In this document: one piece after another, positions 2,619 to 64,000 of the stretch | Layout: each line of letters starts with the position of its first letter | Numbering within the stretch: position 1 is the stretch's first letter | NCBI GenBank assembly: GCA_008632985.1 | Contig: QPGO01000015.1 | Location: 745,998-809,997 of the forward strand | DNA: 64,000 nt | Reading direction: 5' to 3' | DNA from: Psammoneis japonica | Lineage: Eukaryota | The notes under the pieces: model-generated | What the model saw: only the letters and a program-made list of their open reading frames with translations | Database searches by the model: none | Told to the model about the DNA's origin: nothing | Program-made: the position numbers and the translations under genes

Positions 2619-2741
2619 CGTTTCAGAATTCAGCCTGATATTGGGTTAAGAACGAAACGCGACTGGAGGTGGGATGTATGCGCGACTGGGAATCCATAGT
2701 AGCATTCTGGTTTTCAATTGCTTAGTCGTTCTCTTCTTCTT

Positions 2742-19543: not shown

Positions 19544-19545
19544 CA

Positions 19546-25989: not shown

Positions 25990-26770
25990 TCAAACACCAC
26001 AACTCAGTTTGCATCACCTTTCATGAAATCAGTGGATTGCCAGCAAGCATCTCCGATCATGACAAACACAGAGGAGTGCCAGACTGGATCAGTGCACACC
26101 ATGTGGATGCTGTTGAAATTGCTAAAACAAATCTCAACTTCAACAGGACACCCATGCACGAACAATGGTGGGATCATTGGAAAGCCTGCAAGGAGGCAGT
26201 GCATTGGCATCAACAAAAAACATTGCTCTGTTGACAAAAAACATTTGTGCGGGGGTGTCAGTCACTTGCTCATTGGTTCAGTTGGTCATCATCTGACAGA
26301 AAAAAGGAGAAGACCCCCAGATTTGGCCAATGGACCTGGGCTTGATTGCAAGGGAAGGCAGGACCACACACCAGGATCATTGCCACATGCCGCCCAGTGA
26401 AGATCACACATGCCAACCCTGGAAGAGTGTGCTCTCACAGCAAGAAACCTTCCTTCCATCCAAGAAAGATTTCAGATGCCCAAGACAAGCTCCACCAGAA
26501 GATCTGGAAGGAATGTTTGGAAATGGCAGGACAGAGACTGCTTGATCATCCTTGGAGGTGACTTAAACAAAAATGCTTGAGAGGTGCCTTTCTCCACCTC
26601 ATGTGGTGCACTCCTTTGATCTTGATGCTGCTGCGCAGCACACAATGCAACACGTTGGCACACCACAGCCTTCTGTGCCAAACTGGCCATGATGACCCCA
26701 CTGTCTTTTTGCAAGTCCACCTCCATGGACACCATGCAGATCATGTCACTGTGCTGTTGCAAGGCCACTG
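25990..26770 (+). mobile_element. Non-LTR retrotransposon (LINE) fragment with a degenerate apurinic-like endonuclease; probable ORF1 remnants upstream (about 24250-25930)
   Basis: Motifs HVDAVEIAKTNLNF, LGQWTWA*LQGKAGPHTRIIATCRP (family form TYRP) and IILGGDLNKN. Confidence 0.7.
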
Positions 26771-26781
26771 AAAATTCTGCA

Positions 26782-28446: not shown

Positions 28447-28666
28447 TGCGAATGATGAACACTCTGAGCCAACGGCAGCCGGCCACGCGTTTGACGTGCG
28501 TCGTATGTATGTACGCAAGCTGGAAGCGTCGACGTGGCGCCGCGAAAATCCATTCTCGGAATTCCGCCGCCAAGCATGCAACGTTTCTTCTCTCACTTTT
28601 TTCTTGCCCACTTACTACTTCCCAGCGCCTGTTAGTTAAGACGAGAAACGAAGTGACAAAATCGAT

Positions 28667-31621: not shown

Positions 31622-33621
31622 CTACCGAACGCTCCAATCGATTGGATCTTGCCCAAATTTCTGCAATGCAACATTCGCTCGAGAGAAGCATTTCGATCCT
31701 AGGAACGGTGATTTGGTTTTTGCCGCTCCCAAAGGACTAGGATGGCTTGTCCTTATGATACAGTGTTTCGATTCATCCACTCTGCTTCCCTTCTTCTGTG
31801 AGGGATTGCCCCACAATAGAAACACCAATGATCTTGGACCTTTGTCGAGGGCAGCAACGATTTCATCGGTAACCTCCTCCCATCCCACACTGGCGTGACT
31901 ATTGGCTTGTCCCCTTCGTACTGTAAGCACCGCATTGATCATGAGCACCCCTTGTTTCGCCCAATATTCCAAGTTTCCATGTGGTGGATTGGGAATCCCT
32001 ACATCAGCCATGGCTTCTCTGAATATGTTCTTCAGAGACGCAGGAGGACTCACACCTCTTCGAACTGAAAACGAAAGACCGTGAGCTTGTCCGCCGTGGT
32101 AAGGATCCTTTTCACATTGTAATAAAATGAAAGGTCAAACGTGTTGTGGGAATTGTCAACCATCAAACAAAGTGATCTTATCTTGTCACTGTAACTTACC
32201 TGCCCGATAATGACAACCTTGACCTGATCAAGAGGGCATAGATTCAAGGCAGAGAAGATTTCATTTTCTGGCGGATAGACTGTTTTACCTCCAACTCTTT
32301 CGCTTTCAAGAAACATCGCTAGGTCCTGGAAGGATTCCGAGTGGAATGTGTTCGAAAGGGCGGACTTCCATGTGGGCTCTTTCAGTCCGGCGACAAGGCG
32401 TTCCACCGCGGGAGCTGCGTCCGCAGTTGCGTCGTCAGACTGGTAACCTCTGTTTTTACTCTCTGTATTAGCATCTTCTTTGTTTATTGGTGACGCGTCT
32501 CCCTTTCGTAGAATGCGAGGGAGAAAGAGCTGGTCTTCCACATACCAAATTGCACGGCCGTGCGGTCCATCCGTTTCCTTGATCACCGGCTTTCCCTTCG
32601 CACATACATTGCGCCCATAACATTGAAGTTCAAACTGAAATTGACCTCGTGTTCCATCAACACCACGAAAGGTGCCCCCCTTTCTTGTTAGTCCCTGAGC
32701 TTTGTAAGATTCGAGCGCTATAGACTGAATCTCACGGAACAGCGATCTTTGCTGGTCAGTTGTCAATTCACTTACGGAGCAAAATGGATCAATGCTTGCT
32801 CGGTATAGACTTTCCGATAGGATGTAGTTCCCAATACCAGCCAATTTCGACTGATTCAGTAGAAATTTGCAAACATTTAGCTCTGGCTTTTGTTTGGACA
32901 CAAGGGCGACAAAAACCTCTTCGGTTGTGGCTTCGGTATTCAAAATATCTGGACCCAACTTGCTTAGCTTATCCGCCAATGCGGTTTGCGACAAACAAAA
33001 CTTGAGAGTTCCAAAATTTCGGGAATCATGGTAGTATATCTTTCGTCTTTGTCGAGTATTCACGTCCAGGAGTTCAAGATACCATCTCGCGTGTGCTGGA
33101 TTAGTTTCATGGGCAGCTTGACTCAAAAAACGGCCGCTCATCCCCAAGGTTATCCAGATACTCCTTTGAAAGTCACCATCAGAAAACCGATTGTTTCCGT
33201 CATCGAGGATTATGTAAATAAACTTTCCCTTGACGTTCCACTCCCGGATCATGTCAACGCTTGCTGTGGGGCTAGCATCGCTGCAGAGAGTCATAGTTTT
33301 TGCAAAGCCATCAAAACCATCGGGTTTTCCATGTCTGACATACCGCCCAGACAGAAAGCTGATATCGCAGAGTCGCATTCCAACCCCTCCCTGTAATTGA
33401 TCGACCAGCGTACGCACTTCGGGTCCTTCCGGCATCATTGTGATAAGTGCTCGAGTGGAATAACTTGCTCGGCGTCCTCCCCGATAGGGAGATACTCGAA
33501 CTCCAGAAGAACGGTCACAAAACGACGATGTCTTTGCGGCTAACGCTTTTACAAAACTTCTGCTACAGTATGTCATGGACGACAGACACAGTAACACAAG
33601 CATGAGTCTTTCATGCCTCAT
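31622..33621 (-). CDS. Fusion of an Fpg/Nei-family DNA glycosylase and a family-1 uracil-DNA glycosylase, with an N-terminal targeting presequence
   Basis: Fpg/Nei motifs MPEGPEV, KGKFI, LGMSG, DSRNFG and H2TH LLNQSKLAGIGNYILSESLYRA. These run in frame into UNG VYPPENEIF...KVVIIGQ, intron, DPYHG...HGLSFSV, NAVLTV and HPSPL. The start codon is uncertain. Confidence 0.9.
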
Positions 33622-33972
33622 GCTTTGAGTGTCATGGGCAAAGTACCGCCGGGACAAGGGACAAGTACCATCGTCTTGTTTTCTTTGTTGTTTTCGTGCC
33701 GTGTGCCGTGCTGCGGCTCGCGCGAGCTCGCGCGACATTGAAAGATTTATTGTGTTGTCAGCAAGAAAATCACACATGGTTTCCGACTCTCACTCGTTTT
33801 CAAATTTGAAAGTGACTGCGTGAACTCGCGACTTCGCTTCGACACATTCGACAACAAAATGGCGCAAGACACAACGGTCGACATTACAAAGCCGCCGTTC
33901 AATTTCCTTGTCCGAAATAAAACAATGGGCAGCGGCAAACCTTTCTAACTACATAACCTTTTGTCGATTGCT

Positions 33973-40540: not shown

Positions 40541-42706
40541 GGCAGTCGACACACTGTTGCAAAAGATCTTTGTGGTTGAAGAACTCCAATGACCAAGTGT
40601 ACTGTGCCCTCTGACGTGAATCTTGGGCCGAATTTGGCATCTCCGAAAAGAGACGGGAATGCGACACGAGACACGAGACACGAGAAACAACTGGTTCAAG
40701 CTTTGGTTAGCGGTGCGTGGCGGCGTGGTGTGCGATGGCGACTGGTGGGAATTCTGAATTCTGCGCCTGCCAAATTCGTGTAGAATTCTACGCAAGCCAG
40801 CAGCGCTGCGCCAAAATTTCAAAATTCTGCATGTGCGCGCCGATGCGATGCGTCGCGCGTGACCACCACCACGGCGCCCATGTCTGCCCGCCTCCCGCCA
40901 TCAAGAGAATGGAGAGTGCACAGTGGGGCAGGGCCTCCACCCTCTTCAGTCGAGGCCCGCCTGCCACTTCCAAGAGGCTGCGACTTGCTTCTCCGCTTGG
41001 CCGATGCCTCAAGGAACTCTTTTCTGAAAAAACCTTTGACACTTTACATGGTGATGTCAATCTTTGCACACATGGTGTTTTGTCCCTCCCAACATGACTC
41101 TGTGCATCAAACCTTCAACACCCAGTTTTCAGAATTTGGCTCAGAATTTGGGTCGACACTTGAGTGCTGGCACACTGCAGAGACTTTTTCCAACGATGGA
41201 ATTTGGCTGAATGACAGAAATTGTCCTTTTCATCATCAAAAAGCAGCAGCAAAAGTGCGGTGTGTGTGTGCACAGAGTCAGCTGTCACAGCTGCGCGGCT
41301 GAACACAAGCCAGCTGGCTGTGAGGTCAAAGTGCAGGGGGGCCGGACTTTGTGAGCCAAGCAGAAAACTGAAGATCCCAGTCAGAAATGGGGGGGGGGCA
41401 GCAGAAGGAAGTGCAAAGGCAGCTGTCAAAGTGGAGGGACAGAAGGGGCACATGATGCGGCGCAGCCACACATGAGCTGAAGAGCTTGAACTGAAAGATG
41501 ATGCAAGACGATGCAGCCCAGCATTTGGGTGGCCCACTGACAGAAAGCAGAGGAGTGATGGGTGCTGCCACAAAGTGGTCATTGGCGGATGGTTCCGGGC
41601 AAAGTTAGTGGAAAGAAAAGGGGAAGAAGCGGGGCAGGTGAGGGCACACACGCACGAGGGCAAACAGAGCTGGAGGCACCAGGGCTGTGAAGAGTGGAGG
41701 GAGACTGCCAGGAAGGCTTGGGTTGGGAGCAAGTGGCAGCAAATGAGGAGCCAAGAAAGAAGCAGCAGAAAAGAAGCCAAGAACTGCGCAAGTGGTTGAC
41801 AGCAAAAGGGAGAGGAAAGACCCTGTCAAGGCCTGTGTTCCAGCTCCAGGTGCTCCGCTTTTCATCACGCTAGATTTTCTGCGCAGTTTTCAGCACCAGA
41901 CATTTTTGTCTCCACCCGGCAGAGCTCGCACTTTTTGGCTTTATGCAAACATTGATTGTTTTGATGATGCAACACATTTGTGACATCAACGCTCATGCAC
42001 AACAACTGAGGTGCATGATGCGTCACAGGAAGAATCGTGTCAGTTGGCATTTAATGTTTTTCTGGTGATGCGCAGAACAATGCTGACTTCTACGAACACG
42101 TGCCATCCACCCAACACACACCAGCCACAATGCAGCACACTGCTGTCACCGCTCCACAACCCCCTCTTTGCCCTTGCAATTGCATGGAACCGTCTGTTCC
42201 TTTCATTTCAAAGTTACACCATTGTTGTCATCGCAATGCGATTGCGGCTCTAAAGAGTTGCTGTCATTGCGGATGACACCATCTCTTTGTGTTCTCTCAT
42301 TTCGAATTCGGCAAGTCGTTCCATCATGTTTTTTTTTTGCGCATCACCACGCGCGTGCATTTTTCTGGTTGCTTCTCACGTGTTGTTTTATGGTTGTTTT
42401 GCACCAGGGCCTTCGGAATTTCTACAAAACTCAAGTGTTTGCCCGAGCGTTCTCCGAGTGACAGTTTCTACTGGAACAAACTTGTCTTGGTTTGTTTTCA
42501 CTGTGGCACTTGCTGTTTGCACTTTTCAGCATCTGGAGCTGCCCCAGAGGCTGCCTCTGTTCATCCGCATCACTTTCGCGGCAACTGACGTTGGCCCCCT
42601 CTCTGGAGTGCATTTGTCACACAAGCGGGAGTGCAGCTTGCTGTTTGATGCTTTTCAGCATCTGGAACTGCCTTAGAGGCTGCCTCTGTTCATCCGTGTC
42701 ACTTTT

Positions 42707-45700
42707 GTGGCAACAGATGTTGGCCCCCTCTCTGGAGTGCATTTGTCGTACAAACAGGAGTGCAAAAGCAGTGCACTCACCATGGACACGTTGGCCAAAG
42801 TAGCCTCCCAGCAGCATCCCGTTGGTGGCAGTTCCCCTCAAGCAAACGATGACTCTTCCAGCATGTTGAAGGTTTCCTTTTGCATCCAGCGTCACGTCGA
42901 GGCACTCACGGAACATTGTCCACCGCAGGGTAAAGCCAAAACTTGGCACACTGTGCCTCTCCAAGATGCAGTTGACCCCCTTGAGTGCCCTCAAGGTCTT
43001 GTGTGTTTGAGCATCTTGACCACAGAAGATCGTGGAACAAAGAAGACGAGCCCTCTCTTTCATGTTCTTCATCACAAGAATGGTTTGGATGGGTTCAACA
43101 GTGTCAAAACATGGAGCACACTCCGCAACACTGTTGTCGATTGGTTTTGTGAAAAATTTAACTCCAAGAATCGACCGCAACCAAACCAGTGCATCAAGGA
43201 CAAGAACCAGCACCTCTTGATGTTGGTTGTGGTGCCATCAGGAATGTCGATGAGGGATGCCGTGAAGGACAAGCAAAATGTTGCTGCTGTTTTGATGCAC
43301 CGTGTCAAGACAAACATTGGCCTGCTTGTTGATTGTGTCCGTGTGACAGAGTCTCCGGTTGTGTCAGTTGGGACGGGCGATGAGAGTGAGTCGATCGCAC
43401 CGTTGAGTCGAGGTGTGTGTCCTTTTTTGACTGGACTTGCCCAAGCCATTTGCTGTGGTGTTGTCAAGAAGATGGATGCACACCTTCATTGTCAGAAGAC
43501 TTTGAAGTCTTGTCACATGGGAGTGATGGGTTTTGAGGACATCACAGACACCATGAGTGATCGTTCCGATCTGGCGGACGTCCGCAAGCACTGGGGCTGG
43601 GATGATCTCATGATGAATGATCGAGGCAACACTGTCGCCCTGTGTGCAAAGGAGAGGATCACTCCAATGAGCTCTGCAATTGTTTTGGCATTGCCTCGTT
43701 CCAGCGCCGAGCATCAGAATGTTGCAACAGAGATCCGCAAGGATGAAGACTGTTGGGAGGAACCGCTTGTTGAAGGAGGATGCATTGCTGATCATTCGTG
43801 CATTGCCAAGCGCCGATTCCACTTGGCATCTTTGGTCAACATTCAAAACCTAGAAACACACGATGATGAAAAGCTGATCAAAGATTTAAAGATGCATGAG
43901 TGGCTGCCTTTTGGCGAGGTCATGTTTCAAAGTTGGTGGCAAGTTGAGTCTCCAAAGGGGGTGACGAACAATTTTGAAATGTTGGCTTTGAAGGGGTTGG
44001 ACGTCAAGTTCAAATGTGAAACAAGACACCCCGTTCTATCTGCAAAACAGCGCTGGGGTTCAATCTGCAACCATCGCTCTGTTCCAAACGAAATCGCTCA
44101 GAGGAAGCAGGTGGATGAAAAGCCACTTCGAAAACCATGCATCAGCCACAAGAAGTTTAAGAAGCCCATTGTGGATCACAGCGATGATTGTGTTTTTCAT
44201 GACGAGCATTGCAAAAGGGAGAAGCTTGAACAGTCGGATGACAACATGCAGGAAGATCCCTGCATTCCCGAACTTCCCACCAACGCACCACACAAAGTGC
44301 TCATGAGTTGCACGAGTGGCTGCCGGAGGATTTTCTTTATTTGGGCCATTCAACACCAATGACAGACTGCCATCTGAGGCCTTGTTTAACATCGTTGTAG
44401 GTTGGTGGTACAACCATGCATTGCGGATTGCCTCTGATGGTGAATGCAGAGGCACCACTTGTCCGCCGGACCAGTGGTGCAAGCCTTTCAAGCCGCAACG
44501 ATGCTCCGAGTCAGTGGAGGCCATCACCAAAGACAAACACATGGTTGAAGTTCACTTCCCTGCCAGACCAAGCAGGAAGGAATGTTTCAAAGAGCCGCTT
44601 GCTCACCTTGCTGATTCGTGCAAGGCAGCTCCTGGACTTGCATGGTGCAAGTTTTGCAGAAGGATTCGTTGCCATCGTTGCATGCATCATGCCAGTGCCC
44701 GTGATGCAGGGTTGAAGGAAGAGGTGGAGGAGGAGGAAGAGGAAGAGGGGAAGGAGGGCACTGAAGAGACGGATGACCTGCAAAAGGCCGAGGCTGGCAC
44801 TGCAAGGTTGCAACTGCGAGACAAAAAACCAGGAGGAGGAAGATGGGGCCATGGATCAATTGCCTGAGGAAGAGGAGGAAGATGGGGCGATGGATCAATC
44901 ACCTGAGGAAGAGGAGGAAGATGACGGTGTGCAAGACGAAATCCAGGAGGAGCAAGATCCAGAGGAAACTGAGGACAAGGAGGACGATGAATGCAAGGAA
45001 GAAGTTTCTGTGGCTGCAGAAGAGAAGAGGGAGAAAGCCAAGACTGCCAAAGAGAAGAGGGAGAAAGCCAAGGCAGCTGAAGAGAAGAGGGAGAAAGCCA
45101 AGGCTGCAAGAGACAAGAGGGAGAAAGCCCCGGCTGCAGAAGAGAAGCGGGAGACAGTGGGAGATGCTGGATGCAGACATGCGCATCAGACCTTGAAAGA
45201 AATGGCTGGAGTGCGTGAGGATGAGGATCTCATTGGCCTTTGCAGCTCTGTCCCGAAACCAAGGCCAAAAGGAGACACTTCATGGCGTCGGTTGACCAAA
45301 GTGCAGTGACACCAACAAGAAAGGGATCGACTCAAGCGTGAGTGCAAAGATGCTCAAGTGATGTTCTTGCAGGTTAAAAAACTCATTTGGATTGATCCAA
45401 GCAAATGGAACAGCAGGCGTCAGCATCCTGGCGATTCCAAAGGAGCCGTTCCTCACTTGTTTGGTTGCTTTGAAGGGAAAAACAAGGGCGTCATGTTGTG
45501 GGAACCATGGTTTGACTTGCAATGCAATGAAATGAACGGCCATCCCATGAACACATGTGCGGGCCTCATTTTACGTGCCAAACACAAACCAAACATTCCC
45601 CAGCAACTCAATCGAAAATGCAGGGACGAGATTAAGAACAAGGTGGAATCGATTTGCAACCCACCACAGATTGCCAAACTAAAGAGATTGGCTGAAGCGG

Positions 45701-46940
45701 AGATTCAAAAACTTCCAAATTATGGGCGGGGAGCTGACTTCATTGGTTGCAGCTTGGAGGGGAACTGTCCCATGCATGCAACCCTAGATTGAGCTGAGTG
45801 AAATTTCAAGTTTTGGTTTCCAGATGTGTGGAAAGATTTGAAAGAATTGAAGCCATCGGATGGTTGTCGCTCCTTGCCGGAAGGAAACGTGTTGATGCCA
45901 TCAAACAGCAACTTGCCAACGAGCAAGTCCACCCGTGAAATTCCTGCAAGGACAAAACGACACTTGCATTTTTTCCTCCCTGGCCAGTGTTCTTGATCAT
46001 GCTGGCAACGTGGAAATGAGAGACCACATTGCTTCTCACATTCAAACATCCACCAACTGTGCTGACACCAACAACAAGCGCAAGTTGTTTGCAAAGAACA
46101 TGTTGAACGGTCATTTGAAGGGAAAATTCCCACCTGAGAACTCAAACATGAAGTTTTGCGGCAGTGTGGATCGAACGATTTCCCTTGCAGCAGGTGGTGA
46201 ATTTGACGTGACGACCTGCAATGATGACTTCATAACTTTGTGCAACATGCAGCTGCTGATGAGAGTCAATGTGTCACGGCGACGTGCCACAGCCTTTGAA
46301 TGTCACAAAGGGCGTGACAAAAATAACCTTTTGTCTGCATGCATGCTGCATTGTGAATTCACAGCGGAGTGGTTCATCGCAACCATTGGGCAGGAGGCCA
46401 GGGGTTCGAAACCCTGAGTGGGAGTTGTCTGCAGCAACGTTGATCACTGTCGAACACGTAAAACTCTGTGCAGTTCTGTGTGTTCCTTCGTGCGCACCCA
46501 CACTGTTCCGCCAAAACCATGCAGTGTCAGCACACATCAGTGAAGAGCCGCACGGACGCGTGACACATGGGGAGGAGTGCAACACACAGCTGCTGACAAG
46601 AGCCAATGCATCACGACGACGTGTTGCAGCCTTTAAATGTCACAAAGGGCGTGACAAAAACAACCTTTTGTCTGCATGCATGCTGCATTTGTGCCGTCTT
46701 GTGAACAACCACTGCACTGCCTTGCACCGTGGATGGATCTTTGATTCCAGCCACCCTTTTGCATTGCCAGCAAAGGACATTGAGTGTTTCAATTGGTGTC
46801 TTGGGAACGAGGAACATGAGGTGAAACACGTGGCGAAAAAGCATCTGCAACAAGTGCTCGTGGTGCACCAGTTCGAACTTCCTGGGGCGGTGCAGCAGAA
46901 GTTGTGTGCAAAAAGGAAAGCTTTTGTGTTGGATGGTTGA
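42707..46940 (+). pseudogene. Second (cargo) ORF of the transposon, broken: GNAT-like segment, acidic/charged repeats and a C-terminal papain-like Cys-His-Asp segment
   Basis: LLVDCVRVTE...SRGVCPFLTGLAQAI...AHLHCQKTLKSCHMGVMGF; EEEEEDGAMDQ and EEKREKAKAA repeats; QGQNDTCIFSSLASVL...NNHCTALHRGWIFDSS. Domain calls are by eye. Confidence 0.55.
46241..46687 (+). mobile_element. TRIM (miniature LTR retroelement), 447 bp, with a tRNA-like internal segment
   Basis: 110 bp TG...CA LTRs at 46241-46350 and 46578-46687. PPT ggggaggag at 46569-46577. TSD tttg. Removing it restores the host frame FITLC-RLVNNHC. Confidence 0.9.
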
Positions 46941-46963
46941 TCCAGTTGCACAACATTGCCACC

Positions 46964-49900
46964 TCATTTGTCCAAATTGTCACTGTCACTGTCCCCTGCT
47001 GCACTCTCATCATCCTCCACAGTGTCTTCCATGTCGTCATTCTCTCCCCCCCACTCACCAGCTTCGATGTCTTGTTTGTCCACCTCGTCCAAACAGTCCT
47101 CAAAATGGCCCATTGCCTCCCGCTGTCGGACGGCATCCAGAACTCCTTCATGCTCGTCATCGCTCAAATGACATGGTTGAAGAAGTGAAGCCTCATTCCT
47201 GTTGCACGTGCTTGGCAGCACCAGATTGGCTGATGGCTCATTGAGCTCAATGTTGGCAACCGCAATTTGCTTGAGCAACACTCTTGTCTCACATTCCTCA
47301 GCATCACCGGGAGTGTGCCATCCTCTGGCCCGTGGAACAGGGTTGAGATGCGCTCCCTTGCAAACCCATTCACTGGCCTCAACAATCATGGGCAGGTCAA
47401 ACTCTTTCCAAACCTCGTCCTCCTGTGCTTTGTGGGGGAGTTCATCCCATTGCAGCAGATGGGGTCCCTCCTCAGATTCACAAGACAATGCGGCACAGCT
47501 GTTTGGAACAATTTCCTTGGCCATTTCCTCAGTCAGGAAGTCCAACACAGATTTGTGAACCAGCTGCACCTCGTCGGCGTCACTCTCATCTGTTTGAATC
47601 ACCTGACGCACTTGCCAATCATTCAGTCCCTCAAAGATGGGCCACAGTTTGCAAGCTCGGTTGCCACCTGCATGTGTCATGGCTGCTCTGTTGGCTCGAC
47701 ATTTTTAACCCAAGGCCATTTCAGCTGATCCAGGCAGGCTTCACAAGCACAAGGAATTCTTGCATCGCAACCCAACCAATGGGGAAAAGAGGTTCAAATC
47801 GGAAATGGCACAAGGCTCCAATGCCACAATGGCGCATGCACACTTGCACCAATCCAATCAACTTGACTTTGATTGAAGAGCCAAGAACTTCGTCAGCTTC
47901 CTGCAGATGACACACCCTTTGCATTGGCTTTTGAAGGGATTCCCTCTTGGCATGTTTTCTGTCACCAACTGCGCCGAAAGCATTCTTGTTCTTTGCAACT
48001 GTTTTGCAACATTCCTTTGCATGACTGTGCGCGGCTGCAACACTGTTGTCATCCATGACCAAAGCTTCAGGTCTAATTTTCCCATCCTTGTCATTGACTC
48101 CTGCAACAGTTGTGGGCTGCATTTCTCAATGTGCGAGTGATTTGATGCAGGCTCCAATGCCATCAACCTCTCCTTTGACATGTCCAGGTGCTCCAATGGC
48201 GCGGTCAAACACAATGTTGCATTTGTGCGCAAAGACAGACAACAAGTGCAGTGCCAAAGCACATCGGCATTGTTTGGCACAACCATCAGTGTGATCCCAA
48301 ATCACAAGCCATGCCTCACACAGGTTGCGGTTTTTTAACCAGGTGACAAACTTTTCCAAGTGAGCATTGGTGGTGGTGGCATCTTGCTTGGAAGAGTCAG
48401 AGAGATGCGCATGATGTGTTTTCTGAAGCTCGTTGTCAACCATTGCATCGCAAACTCTTCCTTCGATTGACAATGTTTGGTTGTTGCCACAATGGTCACC
48501 CTGAACTTGGTTGTTGAACTCTGCCTTCTGACGCTCGGAGCAGTCATGAGACGTGAACAGGCTGTTGGGTGTTGACTCAAATGCTTTGCGACGCATTTCC
48601 ATGCAACAATTTTTCCCAAGAATGACCGTGTGGGGAAGGTGGCAGCGGAGCTTCTCTAAACTTGGAATGCAGTGCTCTTTCACAAAGACACCGACTGGTT
48701 TTTGGAACCTTGTCAACAAGGTCCTGCGTTTCACCTTTGCATCCTTGTTCCCATCTGGATCTGCCTCACAAACAGGACATGCTTCCATGTGCACACCATG
48801 CTTGGAACAACTTTTTGCAGTCAAGCAACATTGAAACAAAACTTGGGGTGCACTGGGACTTTCATTCTGTTCCAACAATGGAGTTGGATGGGATGGGCAA
48901 TGCTCGCATTCACCCAAAACGCGTTTCCAATGAGGATGATCATGACCATTGACATTGCCACAAATGATGGTTGCAACTGCATCTCGGGCTTTAGGATGAA
49001 GGTGATGGCCGTTGGGGCCAAAAGCTTCCTCTTGACAGACACGCATTGTTTCCTCCAATTTGCCAAGGGCACTGTCATGGTTCTCCAAGTTCTCAGGATC
49101 CTTGCTCGCAAGCTTCAACCAATTTTGCTCCACCTCCATCTCTTTTAAAAGTTTCCTTTGAAACCTGTTCAATGCATCTTGCAGAAAATTGGCGTTGGTG
49201 CAATCGCTGCATTGACACATGCTGTGTTGACTTGCGTTCATTTTTCGACACTGCTTGGGAGTCAAAAATCGAAACATCGTGTCGCCAAGGAGGGTCTTGC
49301 CATTGGTGTCACGCGCGTGTTCGAATCCGCCAACAGACACAGGCTTCAACATGTTGTTGTGCAGCTCACGCATGGACACATTGCGCAACCATTTGTTCAC
49401 TCGTTTCTTGTTTCCATCTTCATCTTTAATGAGAATCATGTCTCGTGTGTTGGGAGACTGCACCATGTCGGGATGATTTGACAACCAGTGCACAAATGCC
49501 TTTCAGATCTCAGGGGAAACTTTGTGAGGACGCTGACGGGGTTGCACTGAAGACCACATGACATCGTCAGTGTTTGAAATCAATGCCTCTCTGGCAATCT
49601 TTCCCTTCTTCATTTGGCAACAAACAGTGCTCCATTTCAGGCCAAGTGCCTTGGCGCAGTCATGGGAAGACAACTTTTCCTCTTCAGCAGATTTTTCTGG
49701 TGAACCGGAGATTCCAGTTGCAAGAGCACGGACAAACAATTTTTTGTCGTCGGTGAGGTGTTGACCATTGCTGGTGTCATTGGCACGTGCCCACATTTTG
49801 CCCAACTGCTCGGCAATTTGCAAGGCCACAGAATTTGTTTTCGGCAATGTCAAATTGCAAGCCTGAAGAAATGGGGCCATTTCGGGAAAATGCAAAGCAC

Positions 49901-50762
49901 ACACAAATGCACAGATTTGTTGTTCTTGAGTGGCGGCGCAAGACAACACTCCTTCTCTCACTTTGACCGCTGCACGACAAAGTGCCTGTTGGGGATCTTT
50001 GTGGGTTGCTTCAAATGCATGAGGATCAAAAGTGGGGCAACCTTGGGAGGCGGTGAGGTTGACAGCAGTTCGGTTGGCTGAAGCGACAGAGGGAGTGACG
50101 GTGGCATTGTCAGAGTCAGGGTTGGAGGGAGTGGCGGCCGCTCCTGCAGCAAGCATTTGGGAGGGGCCTGGCTGTCTTGGCAAGGACGACCCTGGACAAT
50201 GAGTGGGGTGTTCCTTGGAGGTGTTCGGGTTGAAAGCAGCCAGGTCAGTGGGAGCAACGGAGGGAGTGACGGCGGCATTGTCAGAGTCAGGGTTGGAGGG
50301 AGTGGCGGCCGCTCCTGCAGTGTGCATTTGGGAGGGGCCTGGCGGTCTTGGCAAGGACGACACTGGACAATGAGTGAGGTGTTCTGTGGAGGGGTTTGGG
50401 TTGAAAGCAGCCAGGTCGGTGGGAGCAACGGAGGGAGTGATGGAGGCAGCAGAGCTCGGATTGTTCGGATTGAAGGGAGTGGCTGCAGCTGCTTCAGCTG
50501 CAGCAACGACATGGTCGGAGACCATGGAGTGTGTTTCAAGCTCACGATGAGGCTTCTTGTTTTTGCTGTTGCCAGTCCCTGACTTGTGTCGATGGCCAAC
50601 TCCATTTTGCTTCTTCCTCTTGCTGCCCACGATGCACTGGAAATTTGATTGAAAGTGTGCATTGAGAGGGCTGGTGGATGAGACGGATGGCAAGTCGAGA
50701 GGACACATTTTTTTGGTGTGCTCAATCAAATTCACTGCATTGTGTCTGTAGAAATGAGGCAT
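46964..50762 (-). pseudogene. Degenerate Sola-like transposase
   Basis: Colinear ORFs split by in-frame TGA and one frameshift. Motifs HDCSE...QVQGDHCG, HLSDSSKQD, DHTDGCAKQCR and GAPGHVKGEVDGIGA. Confidence 0.75.
50085..50450. repeat. 180 bp (60 aa) tandem repeat in the transposase N-terminus
   Basis: TPSVAPTDLAAFNPN...PGPSQM..AGAAATPSNPDSDNA repeated about twice. Confidence 0.85.
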
Positions 50763-52223
50763 GTTCGGACGTCAGTTGAGTTGAAGAAGACCAAACACAC
50801 GAGCTCCGAAAAATGTAAAGTGAGTGATCACGAGCATTTTTCACGTGGAATGGGACACCAGCCGAAAATCACATTTGGCACAATTAAGTCCTTCATTTTT
50901 GATCATTTCGAAAATCGAAAGGTGAGTGTGCACCCGAAAACACATGTAAAGTGCACACTTGCCATTCGATTTGGCAAAAAACGGATTTTGAAAAAGTCAT
51001 TTGCGCTGAACCTAAAAGGCCAATGATGGGAATCGAACCCACTCGGAGCACCTGGAGCTGGAACAGGCCTCAAGAGAAAGTGCGGCGATCCCCACAGGCG
51101 CCATCAAAGACAGCATGGCCACAGTGGCAGGGGGAGAGCCAGTTGAGCAGGAAGAAAGGGTGGCAATGGCATGGATGTCAGAAGCAAGGAAGGTGGAAGA
51201 AGAGTGTGATGGGATGAGAGGGAGTGAAGGGAGAGGCTTGCAAGGGGAGAGAGGAGGAAAGAGAAACTGAGTGTCAGAGGGAGTGCCGTCCGGGAGGGCA
51301 GAAGCAGCGAAGATCTGGTGATGATCATGGCAGAGACCAAGGCGGGCAAGACAGAAGGTTGACAGGGAAGCAGTGGAGGTTGCAGAGTCGGGGTCAAGGA
51401 TGGAAGCAAAGGGGTGAAAGAGATGCCACATTGGCCCCAAAAATGGCCCCTGCACGCGTCTTGCTTTTGCCGGCACTGTTCAGCAGACCACCGGTGCTGC
51501 CACTCTCTAGAGTGGAGAGTGGCCACTAGAGAGCAAGTACGGTAGAGCTCTAGCAGAATAGAGACTACGAGATGTTTTATCACTTCATGAGCGTTGCGTC
51601 TTACAGTCCCTACATCGAGTGCCAGCAGCCCCTTCACGCCGCCGGTGCCGAAACAGATCACTTCATAAAACATGTTATTCCTACAAGCTTACTGCTTCTC
51701 GTACCGACCCCAGTAGCATTCTACGTTACATACCAGAATTTTTAATTATTTATTTAGTCATTCATATATCATTTTATGAATTGACAACCACCGATTTTTG
51801 GCACGCGACACCACCACGATGACACGTTCCGTCGAACGAGTTCGGGCCCACTCGGAATAATTACCAAGCCATTTGGGTACAGCTATATCAATGAGGTACT
51901 TGCGGATCATATATGTCTCATTGGCTTGGTAATTCTTTGTGGTTGACAAATAAACGACGGCAAAGGATTCACGTGTTGTTTTGTCGTGCTTTGGCGTCAA
52001 GAGCCAGGTTAGTCGAGTTAATCCCAGTAGAAAACCTACGTAGGCCTACTCTGAGCCACAAGCGCGCGTAATAAGCTTGTATCCGATGGCACTAACTGAC
52101 GAGCTTGCTAATGAACAGATATTGCAACTGACAGAACAAAATGAGAGAATCATAATTGAATGCCTAGATTAATTATGACTGCTGGAAACTTCCAACCTTG
52201 AGGCCACGGAGGAACGAACCAAG

Positions 52224-54381
<2,158 letters not shown>

Positions 54382-56202: not shown

Positions 56203-56849
56203 CTCTGCGACACCATGGTCAGTCATCAAGTAAATTGGTTCGAACAGCAATTCTGTTGGTAGGACCAGTGTGTTGGGATTTTGGCTATCTTTCTATTTCT
56301 TTTACCAGTGTTGTCGCAAATAAAAATTGAAACGCCTTAAAGTCCTTGAGGTCCTTCGTCATTATCATTGCTTTTCTCTGTTTTCGAATCATGCCTATAG
56401 TCACAACCTTCTCAGGAATATCAGGGACCACTGCCTTTGACACCTTCTGGTTGAGAAGAAGCTCCGCAGCAACTGCGAAATCAAAGATGCTATTAGCGCT
56501 CCGCCTGATTCGCTCGTTTCATGTACTTAGTCTTGAATTCTCGGCCGCAACTCGAAGCAAATCGCGAAGAAAGTCTTTCTGTTGGAGAGCCGAGTGTGTG
56601 AGACAAGAATTCAAATGCATTAGAATGCACCAGTGTGCGACGGTGCGTACGATGAATGGAATCCTAACAGGTCTCACCTGGGTCCTTTGCCGCCCGTTTT
56701 GGAAGCCATGTCGTTGTCATGTTTTCTACTGCCTCGACTCCAACCCCAGGGAGATAGACCAAAATTTGGTGTGGGAAGTCACTCGAAGTGACAAGCATTC
56801 CACCACCTTGCAGAGGCAATTCTGCCATCTTAGCTTGTTCAAACTGAGA

Positions 56850-59800
56850 CAGGTTGCGGGGATCGCGATGCTGCTGTTGGCCTGGGCCTTGCACTCCAGG
56901 CTGCCAGCATCTGCCCAAGCACCAATCTGCAGCATGTGTCATGAAGCAAGTTGATCACATCCCACATGATGCTGACCATCTGTTGTCAAGGTCATCTTGT
57001 GGTCAATTGGCTGTGCACATTGTGGAGACCATGCCACAGTCTCAATCGATGCCCAATCTTGGTGCACAGGCAACAAGCACATGCATTGGACACAACAGAC
57101 CAACACTGCTGCAGCCAAACGATCATGCAAGCAGAGCTTCATGCCAAAGAGATGCAACACTCCAATGGTTTGCACATGAATGACCATCAATCGGAGGCTG
57201 CCACTGGTCTTTCATGCTCCAAGAACAAAAAAGGGACATTGCAAAAATGCCAAGATGCTTTCGTGCATCAATTGCCTCTCCTGCTTCTTGGCCCATGGCA
57301 TTCCACCCACATTCACTTTCTGCCCAGATCCAAGGCAACTCCAATGACCCATGCCAAGCATTGAGTGGTCATTTCTTTTCAAAAACCTGTTCTTCCTTTG
57401 CTTGGTTGGCAAGCACAAGAGCCCCGTGCAACAAGTGATGAAATGCACACAATTTGAGTGGTGAGTGGTGGGCACCACAAAGCAGAGAATTTCCAAGATC
57501 ATCAGACAAACACAATGACCAGCACCTTTCAGTGAAAAAGCTGACAGTGAGATGTTGCCAAAGATTCAAGTGAGATTGACTCAGCTCTTTTCCAACCCAC
57601 TTTGCCAGCAACAAGGGCCAAGTCATCATCAAAAGAACAGCACCAGCACAGTGAGATGTGAGCCATTCTTTTCCTCTGCACGGTGCTGGCACAGCAGCTG
57701 CCACACCACATTCAGCTGACATCAGCACTGGAGGAGTCTTCAAATTTGAGTTTGAGGCCATCAGACAGACTGAAATGCTCTGCACTTGATGCTGCATGGG
57801 CTCAAATGCCAGGCTGAAAATTGAGGTCAGGGCCCCATGTGGTGAGCAGCACACATTGTTGATGGGAAACTCAGAAGCAACATTTTGAGCAGCTCTGTGT
57901 GTCACATCAAGTGCCTGTGTTCCATTGACTGGAGATGAGCACCATCAGCAATCACTTGCACCAACCAAGCAAAGATGCCTGTCAGCTGTGGAGCAAAAAA
58001 AGCACCTTTTGCCCTGCAGCTGATCCCAACATTTGTGGGCATGTGCTGTGCAAGGCAACTCACTGAACTGGCTGCTTCATTTGGGAGCAACGCTCATGTT
58101 TTTTCCCTTGCACTTGGCCACAGCACTTCCTGCAGCCACTCCTGAACAAAGACTCTGCCCAATTTGTTGCTGCCCTGCTGCTTCGACAAGCATGGTTGTC
58201 ATCAGAAAGAGCACAAGCATGCAGCATTGGAGATGGGATCAGACAACAGGGCAGCTTGATGATGCTCTCTGGTGTGCTGTGCTTGAAGAAAAATTGCAAA
58301 TGAAAGCAGAACAAATCATGAAAAGTGGAAAATTGCGAGATTAAATTTTGCTCTGTGATTTTGGATTTCTCCAAACAAGAAGCTCTCAATGGCCCAAAGC
58401 ATTTGCACTGCTCCACAGAGCAAAGGCCTTTCAGAGAATCCAGTCATGACAACAGATCATCCAGATGTGATCAACACTGACATCTCATGTGTCAACATCA
58501 TCCATTGTTTGCATCTGCAATTTCAGACATCAAATCAATTCTGTGTGATTGACCTGACCTTTGCATGCATCCATGATTGCCACGCAATTGACACACCTGA
58601 CAACACACAATTGCAAGCACATGCACACTTTCTTCTGTTTGACAATGGACAACACATGCTGTGCTTGCCTTGTCAATTGCACATGTGAGTCATTTGTCAA
58701 ATGGAGTTGTTCGATGGACATTGACTGTGTTGACAATGTCACCACATTTTGATCTGCACTGTGTCATTGGTGTGCACCATTGTCATCTCATGAGGCTCAG
58801 AACAGGGCTGTTCTAATTTTTGCAAATCTTTCTCTGGCAGGATCTTTTCTCCCATGCTGCATGTGCATGGAGCCCATTGTGCATTCTCTCTGGTGTTGTT
58901 TTTGTTCACAACATCTTGTTTTTGTTTCTGAGTGAGCTTCTGGTCAGCAATGTGTTGGGCATCAAATGTTGTGTCTCCTTTGAAGACTGGTTGTCCTGGC
59001 ACAGCTTGTGCAGTGGCATGATGTGTTGAATGTGCTGCAAAGGCTGCTGCAGACAGCATCCCCTCAAATAGATTCTGTGCATCCAGGGATGGATTTTGTA
59101 AATCAAAAGTGCACAGCACATTGCCCAGCCAGCACTTGATGCACATGCTCAATTGCACCATTTGCTTGTTGACTCTGTGCAGTTGTGGGCATGCATTCAA
59201 TGCCACAATCATCTCAAACCACAGCTCTAAATTGGTGTCCAATGAACTCACTTCCATGGTCACAAGCAATTGACAACAGTCAAGGACATCTGCTCAACAT
59301 GTTCTTTCTAACAACCCAGTGACAGTTGTGGATTCCTCATTTGGAATTTCTGCCATTTCAAACCATCCTGTTTGCCAAACACTTCAGGACTGGGTTTTTT
59401 CTGTGCTTTGATGCATCTTGTGTGGTCCAATGAGATCCACACATGTGGTCTTTCCCATCACGCTGATTCTGTGCACTCCTTGGGAGGCAAATGACAGCAT
59501 TTCTTTTGTTTCTTCTTAAATTTCTTGCTCGCCTCACATTTTGACATGCATTTTCTCATGTTCTCATGCAATGCACTTGCCTCTGTGAAAAGTCTTTGCA
59601 TGACATGTCACATCTGACAATTTAGCGAGAATGTCTTTGACCAGTTTTTGTTCAGCATCAAGAACTTTGTGTGTCAACAGAAAGAAATCCTTGTCGCAGG
59701 ATCCAGGTGCAACTTTCTCAGCCAGCTCTTTGTTGCTGAGGTTTTCCACAGGTGTTTTGTTTTCTTCACACAAGTCAACTGATCACATCTGCAATGGCAC

Positions 59801-62800
59801 TGGCCTTGCTCCTGCTGAGACAGATCATTTCAGGACTGCACTCCTCAGTTGTCAGATGCCAACACATGACTCTGTCCATTGCAAATTCTCATTGGTGAGA
59901 TTTTTGTGATCTGTGCATGCATTTGTCTGTTGGCCAAACAGCACATTTCAGAATTGATCAAATGTTTTTGCTGTTGACAGAAGTTCTTTTCCCGCTGCAG
60001 TGTGTCATGCCTGTGCTCCATTTGGCTTGCGGCCATGAAAGTCAATGGGTCTGTTATTCTGCACTGTTGTGACTGCTCCCAATCAAAATTGCTTGCACCA
60101 CCAGCACATGTCTCAAAGAAGGGTGTGTGTTGAAATTTGGGTGTGACAATGACATGTCTTTCAACACAACTGGCTTCACATTTTTGAAAGCTTTTGTTCT
60201 GTGCCTGTCCATCGCCACTCAACCTCCTCAGATGAGGTGAGTTTGGCCAAAGGAGCAAGCACACAAGATTGTTGAGACCACATGTCTTGGTGGTGATTGA
60301 TCTCACCAATGAAACATCATTTCAGTTCCTTGCAAGTTGCAGGAGTTGCAATTGTTTGAATTGCCTCAACTTTCTTGGGCATTGGTCTGATGCCATTTTG
60401 GGTGACACAAAAGCCCAGACAGCTTGCTTCAGGCTCAGCAAAAATGACCTTTTGGCATTGACCTTCAAACTGGCTTGTTGGAACCATGTGAATGTTGTCT
60501 CGAGCTTCTTTTCACATGATCTTTGAAGTCACCTTTTGCCAGGCATGGCACCATGGCATCAGGGCAAGTTCTGACAAACTCTGGTCCTGCCATGAGCTTG
60601 CTTGTGTGCTCCTGAAAAATGTCTGGAGCTCCACAAATTCCCGTTGGAAGCCTGCAGGGCTCATGCTTGCCCCGCAGCATCACGATCATGCACAAACAAT
60701 GTGTGTGTGGTGTCAACTCAATGTTGCAGCATCCCATGTTCAAATTGAGTGAGGTTGCACACATGAATCCTTCTGGTTTCTGTGGCATGTCCTGAATTTT
60801 GGCGAAAGATGCAGAGAGCACATTGACCTTCCATCAAGCTCATGGAAGCGGCAGAAGTCAAACCAAACTCAACTGTTTTCCTTTGGGCTGAACAAAGATT
60901 GGAGCTGCCCACTCAGAATGGCCCGCTCTTCTCAGGACTCCCAACTTGCACAGTCAGTTTGCTTCCCAAGCAGTTGCCTCCAAGGCTTGTGGAACTGGAA
61001 AAGGTTTCACATGGCGCAGAGTTGCGCCAGTGCAAGATCCACCAGTGTTCCTGTCCATTTGCCTGGAGAACTGTCAAAAAGATGTTCAGAAGAAGTTCAA
61101 ATGATCCTGTTCCTCTGGGATCAGATGCCAGTCACATCATTGAGATCAGCAGCATGACAGTCAGTGTGGAGGATTTTTTGTTGATCCTGTCATTAAGACC
61201 ATTCATGGCATGAGATTCTTCAATGTGACCAGCAATCAGCTTTGACACTTTGGCTTTGAAGAGTGCATCAACATTCTTCACTGGCACAGTTGTGTCTTGT
61301 TCCCATTTGATTTGTCTGCTCACAAAATCAAGTGTGACTCTAAGACTGCTCATCAAGTCATGTCCCACAATCATGTCATGTTGCAAAAGAAGTGGCAGCA
61401 CTGTCAACATGTGCTGTCTTCTCAATTCAACTCACACTTGTCAAATGCAGGCAGTGAGAACTGAGTGGAGAGCATCAACTGTCAGTTGTAAAGAACCTGC
61501 CCTTGGTTTCCCAAGTCTTGGTGGCAGATTTCTCATTTCTCAACTTCCACATTGATTTGCACAAAATTGTGGTTGATGATGTTCTGCTGTTGAGAAGAAA
61601 GCACAGAGGCTGATTTTTCTTCTCCCCCCAAGGAAGCATTCACACAAGCAGCAATGGCTGCTGGACCAGTGTGACTGCTTTGGCCCTTTCTCCAGGCTTC
61701 TTCTGACATCCAGCAACATGCAACAAGACTCCTCAACAGGAGCCAGTTGTTCCTCAAAATTGCTGCAAGTCACTTTTTCAAACCAACTGTTTTCCTCACT
61801 GAGGATGCCTGAGTCACATTCCTCACTCTTGTCCATCTGATTCTTTGTGGAGGAACTTGTCTTCAGAGATTTGTTGGTTGCCTGAGTGATCATGAAATTC
61901 AATTCTTCCTGCCTGTTGAGAGGTGTTTTTAGCATCGCAACAAGACCATGTGGGATCGCCATTTGAACATTGCCATTTCATGTTTTGTTCAGCATTCTCT
62001 TGGCATTCTTTTGCTGGCCTGGTCTTTTGATGCCCAGCACTGGCCCACATTGTGGGTGGCTTTCTCATGATGGCTGCACCACTTGTCACAGACTCAGATC
62101 ATTTGGCACCAGATTGGCAACCATTTTTGGGACCACAATGAGATCCATTCTTGGCTTTGGAACCAAACTTGTTGGCAGTGTCAGGCTGGGCATGAGTTTG
62201 GTCAAATGTGTCCTCTCAGTGACCTCCAGGCACTTCAAGAACTCCACCAACTTGTCAAAGGCATGGTCTAAAATTTCAAAACCTTGCAGGGTTGACTGAT
62301 GTTGCCATCAATGAGGTGCATGATTGCAAGCAATGTTGCAGAGCTCATCTTTGTCCAGATTCTGTTTGGACTCAAAGGGAGGATGACACTTGAAATCTTT
62401 GTCAACTTGTTCCTGCATTCAATTGGCAATTTCTTGGATCTTCACAGAGTCCAGCTTCTTGAGTTCACGTCACAGATGCATTTTCTGGCTCTGAAGTGCA
62501 TTCTTGGGAAAGACATGGTCAGAGAGGCAATGATGACATTTTTCAAAGGCTCCTTCATCTTCAACATTCATTGCCTTGTTCTCAAAAACTTGCAGAGCAT
62601 CCCCTTCCAATGACCCATGCACAAGTCAGAAATTGTCAGCTTTTTCTTGATGTTCTGGTCCACCTGAGTTTGCTGAATGTTTTTGAGAATTTGATGTGCT
62701 CAAGGGACTCCCTGCTTGTTGTGGTGCACGACAATGAATGTGTGAGCACAACTCTTCTTGTCTTTTGGATGAAAACACTGCTGCATTTTGAGGTGCTGGC

Positions 62801-64000
62801 TTGGTTTGAGTGTCTTTGGCTCAGAAGTTGACTCCAGCGGTGCAGGTGCAATCTTCTCCGGCTTGATGGCAGACACTGGAGGCAAAAGCTTTGTTTTTGC
62901 ATTTTGCCCTCTGTGGTGTGTGTGCACAATGCACCATGCTCAAAGAATGAGTGCTGCAAATGAAAGTGTGACAAATCATGAAAAGTGGAAAATTGTGAGA
63001 TTAAATTTCACTCTGCAGTTTGGGGTTTCTCTGAGCAAGCTCTCAATGGCCCAAAACATTTGTGCTGCTCCTGCAGAGCAAAGGCCTTTCAGACAATCCA
63101 GTCCTGACAACAGATTGTCCGGGTGCAACCAACACTGACATCTCATGTGTCAACATCATCTGTCAATTGCATTTGCAATTTGAGACATCCAATCAACTCT
63201 GTGTGATCAATCTGACCTTCACCCTCATCCACCATTGTTGTGTGGCTGACATGTGTGATGACACATGACTGTGAACACATGCAATTTCTTCTGCTTGGCA
63301 ATGCATGCTGCACTGAATGTGACACATCAAATGCCACATAAAAAATCTGCAGGAGTGTGGAAAAATTCTGGGCCACAGGGCAGAGCAAATGGGTCATTTG
63401 ATGATGTGTCTTTGAAGCCAGCGGGCTTTTGTCTCAAGGAAATTCTCTGCTTGCCTGCAGCCAAGCTTCCAAAAGCTGGTGGCAAGCCTGAAAGCAGGGT
63501 CCCACCATTGCCCCTTTCCATGAAGACAAGCCTCATGACAATGCTTTCTGGCTGACAACAACTGGGCAATCAACAAAAGCAATTGAGCAAACTGTGCTGT
63601 GACCATCTTTTGATGTTGGCCAGGCCAGCAACACTTGAAGAAAGTTTGGAAGCTTGTGCACCCCCCGAATGTTTTCAAAAAGTGTTCAATGGAGAAGACA
63701 TGCTGACCAAGCACTCAAAAAAAGTCAGCAGCAAAGTTTTTTGAGTGTGAGCAGTTGGAGGTTGGGGTTGGTGACAGCAGCAACACACAACAAAAACTCA
63801 CAGAGGTGTGTGCAGTTTGGCTGGAGAAGTCTTTTTCACAACATCAGCACCTTCTTGGTTGCTTTGCTTGGATGTGACAACAAAAAAGATGCAAGGAAAC
63901 CTTCATGACAGCCACCATCAGAGTGATGAGGCTCTTTTGCTGTTCCTTGGCCCAACAACCTCTCCCCAGCTGCGTGCTTGCAGTCACTCAGATTGTTGCC
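56850..64000. other. TpA- and CpG-depleted block C, running off the window
   Basis: Only about 15 TA seen by eye in 57000-64000. Confidence 0.95.
58295..63310 (-). mobile_element. Degenerate Ty3/Gypsy LTR retrotransposon with both LTRs
   Basis: LTRs at about 58295-58650 and 62955-63310, both starting tgcaaatgaaag. Minus-strand order is gag, protease (HDMIVGHDLM), RT (KIQDM...ATSLNLNMGCC...RLPTGICGAPDIFQ), then RNase H and integrase remnants. Confidence 0.88.

Follow-up and report, generated by a model that had tools for sequence, protein, structure and literature searches.

The closest described system to the one reported here comes from the chlorarachniophyte Bigelowiella natans. During mutation accumulation in this organism, 230 of the 231 mutations that arose in two viral insertions changed TpA to TpG or CpA, at a rate of about 6e-7 per site per generation, and TA in the nucleocytoplasmic large DNA virus (NCLDV) region stands at an observed/expected (o/e) ratio of 0.45 (Mettrop et al. 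2026, bioRxiv 10.64898/2026.01.13.699255). Coding sequences of B. natans that are low in TpA are enriched for reverse transcriptase (RT) and DDE domains, and an ADAT2-like adenine deaminase is the proposed cause; the main text of the preprint mentions neither diatoms nor CpG nor the context of flanking bases (10.64898/2026.01.13.699255). Here we describe a stretch of 64,000 nucleotides from the diatom Psammoneis japonica (contig QPGO01000015.1, positions 745,998 to 809,997 of the forward strand; hereafter the window), which contains the RT of a dead Ty3/gypsy element. It is probable that a process acting after integration, and confined to mobile-element DNA, turned almost every TpA of this element into TpG or CpA. 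The change runs from TA to TG or CA, affects the two strands equally, continued after copies of the elements had diverged, is restricted to three blocks of the window and is independent of the decay of CpG.

Within the three blocks, TA is found at 0.00–0.18 of expectation and TG and CA at 1.3–2.5 of expectation, and 94 TA survive in 33,953 bp. The host-gene parts contain 1,201 TA in 28,802 bp (mostly 0.5–0.8 of expectation, with a maximum of 0.98), and CG is near 1. The edges of the blocks are sharp to about 200 bp: adjoining host intergenic DNA has 10–18 TA per 200 bp, against 0–2 inside. Block 1 (11470–28310), delimited by a dinucleotide scan and by its repeats, is erased for both TA and CG and carries a long repeat pair (17300–19560 and 26580–28460) around a 7-kb interior. 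Block 2 (40790–51510) is TA-erased, with about half of its CG lost, and consists of a high-copy repeat family. Block 3 (56830–64000) is again erased for both TA and CG; it contains the Gypsy element and flanking repeat DNA, has a sharp left edge and extends past the end of the window. Between 56850 and 64000 (7,151 bp) it retains 16 TA and 40 CG beside 837 TG and 837 CA. In contigs of a public run, summed contig depth is 2,000–62,657 for block 2 and 440–3,500 for the Gypsy element, compared with about 65 for single-copy contigs and 56–124 for most bins of the host parts. Depths so far above single copy indicate that the blocks are multi-copy families. An earlier note on this DNA, made from the letters alone, had tied the effect to the Gypsy RT; it is seen there, but it is not specific to the RT and spans about 34 kb of the window.

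The RT remnant lies on the minus strand of block 3. A stop-to-stop open reading frame (ORF) of 122 amino acids (60465–60833; given as 60465–60821 in the earlier note) reads ...EGFMCATSLNLNMGCCNIELTPHTHCLCMIVMLRGKHEPCRLPTGICGAPDIFQEHTSKLMAGPEFVRTCPDAMVPCLAKGDFKDH... and contains all three of the strings quoted in that note, FMCATSLNLNMGCCNIEL, GKHE and VRTCPDA. A Pfam search of this ORF gave no match at E ≤ 0.1, which shows the degree of its decay. Searched with phmmer against 1.84 billion cluster representatives, it has 398 matches at E ≤ 1e-3, 64 of which reach E ≤ 1e-10, the top one at E = 1e-22 and about 50% identity, and Pfam finds RVT_1 on the matched proteins P0002, P0004 and P0007. At three places the unmutated matches show FQYATSLDLNMGYYHIEL, GKYEY and Y[IL]DD, which are the intact Gypsy motifs that the earlier note had named. 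The Y[IL]DD of the intact relatives corresponds to CPDA in the window, and the loss of the catalytic YxDD is thereby confirmed. CPDA in place of YxDD is a sign of inactivation, and not of non-membership in Ty3/gypsy. The ORF (60465–60833, minus strand) is thus annotated, from its phmmer matches to RVT_1 proteins and their alignment, as a decayed Ty3/gypsy RT fragment that covers fingers and palm.

The remnant extends well beyond this ORF. P0007, a protein of 1,004 amino acids with the domain order RVT_1, RT_RNaseH, Integrase_H2C2 and rve, is colinear by tblastn with the minus strand of the window from 61380 down to 58748, across three frames. The whole-pol remnant so defined (58748–61400, minus strand; protease, RT, RNase H and integrase) is interrupted by 14 in-frame TGA, 3 of which fall on Arg columns, and by at least three frame changes; it contains no TAA and no TAG. 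Direct repeats resembling long terminal repeats (LTRs) flank pol, one upstream (62650–63420) and one downstream (58000–58760), both on the minus strand and with approximate ends. These repeats are 63–79% identical (78.5% by blastn between the copies 62955–63303 and 58295–58647), and the public-run contigs show high summed depth and LTR-to-LTR joints for them. The element measures about 5.4 kb, the size of many contigs that carry its intact relatives. The colinear pol remnant together with the flanking direct repeats identifies the object as a Ty3/gypsy element that is dead, and the RVT_1-type RT, the integrase placed after the RT and the flanking repeats are all present, as expected of a member of Ty3/gypsy. 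It has in common with the protist Ty3/gypsy elements (Metaviridae; P0007 and 80 metagenome loci of about 5.3–5.8 kb) the order protease, RT, RNase H and integrase, the direct repeats and the size of about 5.4 kb. Unlike the intact protist elements, the copy in the window has no Tyr, has CPDA for YxDD and is broken by TGA codons and frame changes. The earlier claim that the element was inactivated by erasure of Tyr rather than by stops is therefore overstated. It is true in the narrow sense that pol has no TAA or TAG, which the TpA process cannot create, but the 14 TGA and at least three frame changes stand beside the lost Tyr, and any of these lesions may have come first.

To follow individual residues, 134 matches with at least 2.5% Tyr were mapped onto the window by tblastn, and a column was taken as conserved where at least five homologues cover it and at least 70% of them agree (155 columns). 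None of the 12 Tyr columns is kept: 4 are Cys (TGY), 5 are His (CAY) and the others are Arg (CGC), Pro (CCC) and Phe (TTT), one each. Phe is kept in 7 of 7 columns, Gly in 10 of 11 (1 other), and His and Gln in 3 of 3 each. Leu is kept in 17 of 26 columns, with 4 changed to Pro, every one CCA; Ile in 6 of 9, with 3 changed to Thr, every one ACA; and Val in 3 of 5, with 2 changed to Ala, each GCA. The tabulation of Tyr, Ile, Val and Leu codons that the earlier note had suggested thus gives Cys and His, ACA Thr, GCA Ala and CCA Pro, as loss of TA predicts. Only 1 of 8 Arg columns is kept (3 Gln, 2 TGA and 2 Lys). In the same 12 Tyr columns, 605 of the 708 cells filled by the 134 intact homologues are Tyr, 29 are Cys and 14 are His; Cys and His are not, therefore, the natural residues of these homologues there. 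Nor were the Tyr positions filled by a random set of residues: 9 of 12 are Cys or His against a background of 6%, far beyond chance. Among the 610 window residues aligned to P0007 there is no Tyr at all. The conserved columns contain 54 mismatches, of which 19 are reversed by a single TA>TG/CA step and 9 by a single CG>TG/CA step; 7 are other transitions, 9 are transversions and 10 need at least two changes. The TA and CG classes make up 45 and 44, respectively, of the 486 possible single-base changes (about 9% each).

The direction of the change can be read at the level of codons from intact relatives, for which we used the 80 loci, all from one metagenome scan, with P0007 as the hub for codon register. 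TA o/e is 0.47–1.18 in all 80, and low TA is therefore not a trait of the family. Where these relatives have TA within a codon, the window has TA in 1% of cases, TG in 33% and CA in 21%, whereas a control of intact against intact sequences (10 loci) gives TA 52%, TG 8% and CA 2%. Where the relatives have CG, the window has CG in 3%, TG in 14% and CA in 31%, against CG 32%, TG 1% and CA 13% in the control. This comparison makes TA, and separately CG, the ancestral states and TG and CA the derived ones. Differences between repeat copies agree. The dinucleotide difference seen most often is CA against TG, both in a repeat pair that we label A (43 sites in 1,696 aligned columns) and in the LTR-like pair (33 sites in 726 aligned columns), and any other adjacent double transition occurs at most 7 times in the two pairs. 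Such an excess is expected if one ancestral TA or CG was resolved independently in the two copies, and it shows that much of the change postdates the divergence of the copies. The codons of the relatives, the conserved-Tyr tables and the repeat-pair differences all bear out the change of TA to TG or CA proposed in the earlier note.

The two strands are affected alike. The ratio of Cys to His among the replacements of Tyr is 4:5 for the RT and 5:6 for the protein family of block 2 (see below), and TG and CA number 837:837, 1024:1014 and 1847:1953 in the three blocks. Strand symmetry, together with changes that follow the divergence of copies, argues against editing of the element RNA or of one strand of complementary DNA (cDNA), and points to a process that acts on integrated double-stranded DNA. 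The 94 surviving TA are unevenly distributed over contexts: 25 are in TTAA and 27 in CTAA/TTAG, with none in ATAT and none in ATAC/GTAT. The contexts of the survivors differ from those of TA in host DNA (chi-square 199) and from those expected of back-mutation from TG and CA (chi-square 99.5). The ten context classes are all fitted by a per-strand, multiplicative model in which the base 3′ of the A sets its survival on each strand independently, with survival weights of 11.7 for A, 5.8 for G, 1.8 for C and 1 for T, and the trend is alike in each of the three blocks. From these small numbers, we infer that the favoured target may be T-A-Y, the Tyr codon itself, and that TAA would be the most resistant context.

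Some of the change may be recent. Contigs at single-copy depth in the public run, which is possibly from the window's own sample, match the element sequence of the window with 0–5 differences per 0.6–1.8 kb. Among the differences listed for block 3, 7 of 9 are at TA/CG<->TG/CA sites, which hints at recent activity. At position 60056 the window has TA where a single-copy-depth contig has TG, and at 63913–63914 the window has CA where the contig has TG (two adjacent changes). These differences are possibly allelic or strain variants produced by the same process.

A parallel decay of CG to TG or CA, missed by the single-process view of the earlier note, removed 7 of the 8 conserved Arg and gave TGA stops. 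CG o/e is 0.03–0.26 in blocks 1 and 3 and 0.34–0.63 in block 2, with TA at the floor in all three. Because block 2 has TA at 0.02–0.18 with CG at 0.34–0.63, the loss of TpA is separate from, and ahead of, the decay of CpG. In blocks 1 and 3 CG is erased beside TA, whereas block 2 and the Tyr-free metagenome proteins described below keep most of their CG or Arg. Decay of methylated CpG would account for the CG part of the change, examples being CGA codons of Arg that became TGA or CAA, and Asp replaced by Asn where the CG spans two codons; loss of CG also yields Cys and His, from Arg CGY. It leaves TpA untouched, whereas in block 2 TpA is nearly gone while half of CpG stays. Transposable elements are CpG-methylated through DNMT5a in the diatom species studied in PMC9998398, and for this reason the CG loss is best read as ordinary decay of 5-methylcytosine (5mC), slower than the TpA process. 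Two metagenome relatives of the Gypsy element that otherwise look intact (L020 and L037) have CG o/e of 0.19 and 0.12 with normal TA (0.62); here CpG has decayed with no erasure of TpA, and the two processes are therefore separable.

Block 2 provides a second case of Tyr erasure, independent of the Gypsy RT and unrelated to it. On its minus strand, at 46961–49292, alignment with the homologues P0151–P0159 reveals what is left of a mobile-element protein, unnamed and about 700 amino acids long. None of its 12 conserved Tyr is kept (6 His, 5 Cys and 1 Leu), and Arg is kept in 8 of 12 columns, including CGT, CGA and CGG codons. A Pfam search of the nine homologues found no family, and an Atlas look-up of the P0151–P0154 family returned only unnamed eukaryotic clusters, one of which has DUF7869 on 17% of its members, a lead only. 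Elsewhere in block 2, the ORF 42677–44362 has no homologue at E ≤ 1e-3 among 5,032 candidates. The region 46002–46668, where summed contig depth reaches 62,657 (single-copy DNA: about 65), is a repeat of very high copy number with a 113-bp direct repeat pair at 46240–46352 and 46577–46689; positions 46492 and 46542 have TA in most other copies and TG in the window. A 172-bp tandem repeat, 83% identical, at 50041–50497 lies within the minus-strand ORF 49503–50771 and codes for a Pro/Ser/Ala-rich repeat.

Relatives of the Gypsy RT that lack Tyr are also present in public data. Tyr content is bimodal across the database matches to the RT ORF, and 12 of the best 150 have less than 1% Tyr. In 74 conserved-Tyr columns these 12 proteins have Tyr 2 times, Cys 39 times and His 22 times, and they keep Arg in 22 of 33 columns; all come from JGI/IMG and ENA metagenome assemblies. 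The same erasure thus appears to be present in other assemblies, mostly without strong CpG decay. A search of viral contigs with one of the Tyr-free proteins (P0022) found no relative. Erasure of TA leaves TGA as the only stop codon, and as a result the blocks are full of long meaningless ORFs; over all frames, the triplets of block 1 include 23 TAA, 8 TAG and 379 TGA. Examples of false ORFs are one of 340 amino acids inside a repeat (17749–18771) and one of 158 amino acids at 59845–60321. The latter was considered as RNase H and ruled out, as tblastn places the RNase H homology in another frame, with 7 TGA; this ORF is thus a by-product of stop-poor DNA. Tyr-free 'hypothetical proteins' deposited from gene callers include P0011, P0036 and P0048.

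The process that we propose would act after integration, as a transition from A:T to G:C at TpA steps of either strand. In proteins, Tyr codons (TAY) would come to encode Cys or His; CTA would change from Leu to Pro, ATA from Ile to Thr or Met, and GTA from Val to Ala. No TAA or TAG would result, and the second, slower process of CG to TG or CA in the same blocks would supply TGA from CGA. The transition may be enzyme-driven: a putative enzyme would hypermutate silenced or repeated DNA in a targeted way, most simply by deaminating adenine to hypoxanthine with a 5′-T-A-Y preference, as genome defence of the same kind as that proposed for B. natans. More tentatively, and with slightly more doubt than conviction, we suggest that diatoms possess an 'adenine RIP', by analogy with repeat-induced point mutation (RIP). 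A dedicated mutator would recognise repeated or silenced DNA and deaminate A in 5′-T-A-Y on both strands until TA is gone; elements would die through the loss of their Tyr, Ile-ATA, Leu-YTA and Val-GTA codons, and not through new stops. Such a system would be common to B. natans and diatoms, possibly old in the stramenopiles, alveolates and Rhizaria (SAR), and common in nature, the last being suggested by the occurrence of Tyr-free Gypsy proteins in unrelated metagenome assemblies.

Several observations weigh against a targeted hypermutation of adenine. Because TA reads the same on both strands, the sequence does not distinguish A-to-G from T-to-C at TpA. Of the earlier description of the change as A-to-G, what stands is that TA became TG or CA; it cannot be told apart from T-to-C on the opposite strand. 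Pair A also has 192 transversions in its 1,696 columns, and so many transversions between copies mark the elements as old. A TpA rate raised only moderately could, given enough time, lead to the same end state. The TAY preference comes from only 94 survivors, some of which are perhaps new TA formed by back-mutation, and runs tests for strand patches are weak (z −1.39, p 0.11; z −2.14, p 0.025). Finally, the differences listed between the window and the contigs are 40 of 657, and the run was possibly made from the same sample as the window.

The rival that survives best, although we consider it unlikely, is passive decay of a modified base at the palindromic TpA of silenced elements, for example 5-hydroxymethyluracil (5hmU) or methylated adenine, which would mispair or deaminate as 5mC does and require no mutator enzyme. 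TA and CG are both self-complementary pyrimidine–purine steps with TG and CA as their common sink, and both strands are affected equally. Dinoflagellate DNA carries 5hmU, mainly at TpA and TpC; we know of no TpA-specific modification in diatoms. That diatom elements are CpG-methylated through DNMT5a in the species studied (PMC9998398) also suits a decay of modified bases. However, TA loss leads CpG loss in block 2, and decay at TpA would have to outpace that of 5mC. The effect of the 3′ neighbour, moreover, suits an enzyme that reads trinucleotides on each strand, although a modifying enzyme could share such a preference.

It is improbable that no special process was at work and that a genome-wide mutation bias against TA and CG, free to show itself only in DNA without selection, eroded the blocks by ordinary neutral decay over a long time. 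TA is mildly low in the host parts too (mostly 0.5–0.8), and the many transversions show the elements to be old. But adjoining intergenic DNA has 10–18 TA per 200 bp where the blocks have 0–2, with the transition completed over about 200 bp, and the retention of 7 of 7 Phe and 10 of 11 Gly beside 0 of 12 Tyr shows that general decay was modest compared with the loss of TA.

Editing before integration, either A-to-I editing of the element RNA by an ADAR-like enzyme or the action of a deaminase on cDNA, with the changes then inherited through retrotransposition, is very improbable. ADAR favours a 5′ U, and APOBEC-type editing of retroelement cDNA is well known. Yet such editing is strand-asymmetric, whereas Cys:His is 4:5 and TG:CA is 837:837. 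At 33 sites one LTR-like copy has CA and the other TG; such different outcomes at shared sites need change after the divergence of the copies. Block 2, in which no RT was found, is erased too. The weakest reading, which we give almost no credence, is an artefact or a naturally TA-free lineage: modified bases can give systematic transition errors in some long-read assemblies, but single-copy-depth contigs from a run that may be the window's own sample differ from the window by only 0–5 per 0.6–1.8 kb, the 12 Tyr-free relatives come from other JGI and ENA metagenome assemblies, all 80 intact relatives have normal TA, and a working RT cannot be without the Tyr of YxDD.

The host parts of the window contain ORFs with ordinary Pfam domains, including bestrophin, FKBP, SNF2, RING, DnaJ, Fpg/Nei and UDG. 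A Pfam scan of 11 block ORFs (the RT ORF and 10 others) found none that reaches a family cut-off, with one sub-threshold match to eIF3h_C. Block 1 is possibly a Copia-type element, a lead only: Atlas look-ups of its ORF 22530–23045 lead to diatom protein clusters in which rve and gag_pre-integrs score below 0.9. All named relatives of the bestrophin ORF (5931–7103) are diatoms, at about 62–82% identity (Nitzschia, Mayamaea, Cylindrotheca, Pseudo-nitzschia, Entomoneis and a Bacillariaceae metagenome-assembled genome), in agreement with the stramenopile origin that the earlier note had assumed. A polyubiquitin array on the minus strand (52224–54091) has about eight units of 228 bp, 89–94% identical in DNA and almost identical in protein; its frame is broken near 53430–53530, and its junctions read RGG-MQIF with no inserted residue. 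A polyubiquitin junction of this form argues against a cercozoan such as B. natans. The minus-strand Fpg/Nei ORF (Fapy_DNA_glyco and H2TH; 32050–33789) overlaps the UDG-domain ORF 31622–32134 by 85 bp in a different frame, and the two ORFs are possibly parts of a single gene, with a small intron, whose product would be a fusion of two DNA glycosylases.

With the window, TpA hypermutation extends to a second major lineage, where it is cleanly separated from CpG decay and has a candidate preference for certain trinucleotides. Diatoms include genetically tractable species (knock-outs by CRISPR in P. tricornutum are described in PMC9998398), which makes a hunt for the enzyme practical, and the suggested TAY preference narrows the candidates. 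The change of conserved Tyr to Cys or His is a simple read-out of the process at the protein level. There is also a practical warning, as TA-free DNA is prone to long ORFs that are false, and public databases already contain Tyr-free 'hypothetical proteins' derived from such DNA.

Among the known systems, APOBEC3 acting on retroelement cDNA and ADAR acting on repeat RNA in animals resemble the process seen here in that deaminases drive the hypermutation of elements with a preference for neighbouring bases. Both affect the strands unequally and work either on RNA or ahead of integration, whereas the change in the window is symmetric, follows the divergence of copies and includes a block in which no RT was found. 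RIP in Neurospora and other ascomycetes is also a transition hypermutation of repeated or mobile DNA that depends on dinucleotide context, affects both strands, has sharp edges and kills elements through numerous substitutions. The chemistry is different: RIP changes C to T mainly at CpA, raises TpA and makes TAA and TAG, whereas here TpA is destroyed to near zero, G+C goes up at the changed sites and no TAA or TAG is made.

A literature search, in which subscription journals were thinly covered, turned up no account of TpA erasure in the elements of diatoms, and the B. natans preprint was the sole report of such a signature that it found. The window and B. natans have in common the change of TpA to TpG or CpA on both strands and its confinement to foreign DNA, with the rest of the genome ordinary; here too, TpA is depleted, CpA and TpG are gained in clusters, TA is ancestral and host DNA is spared. 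They differ in that the host here is a diatom, a stramenopile, and in that the erasure is saturated (TA o/e 0.00–0.18, compared with 0.45 in the NCLDV region of B. natans as given in the preprint). The targets here are LTR retrotransposons and another repeat family, followed at the level of codons, beside CpG decay and with a candidate TAY preference, and the rate has been measured only in B. natans. The window thus probably shows the same kind of TpA hypermutation as B. natans, in another lineage and at its saturated end state on LTR retrotransposons.

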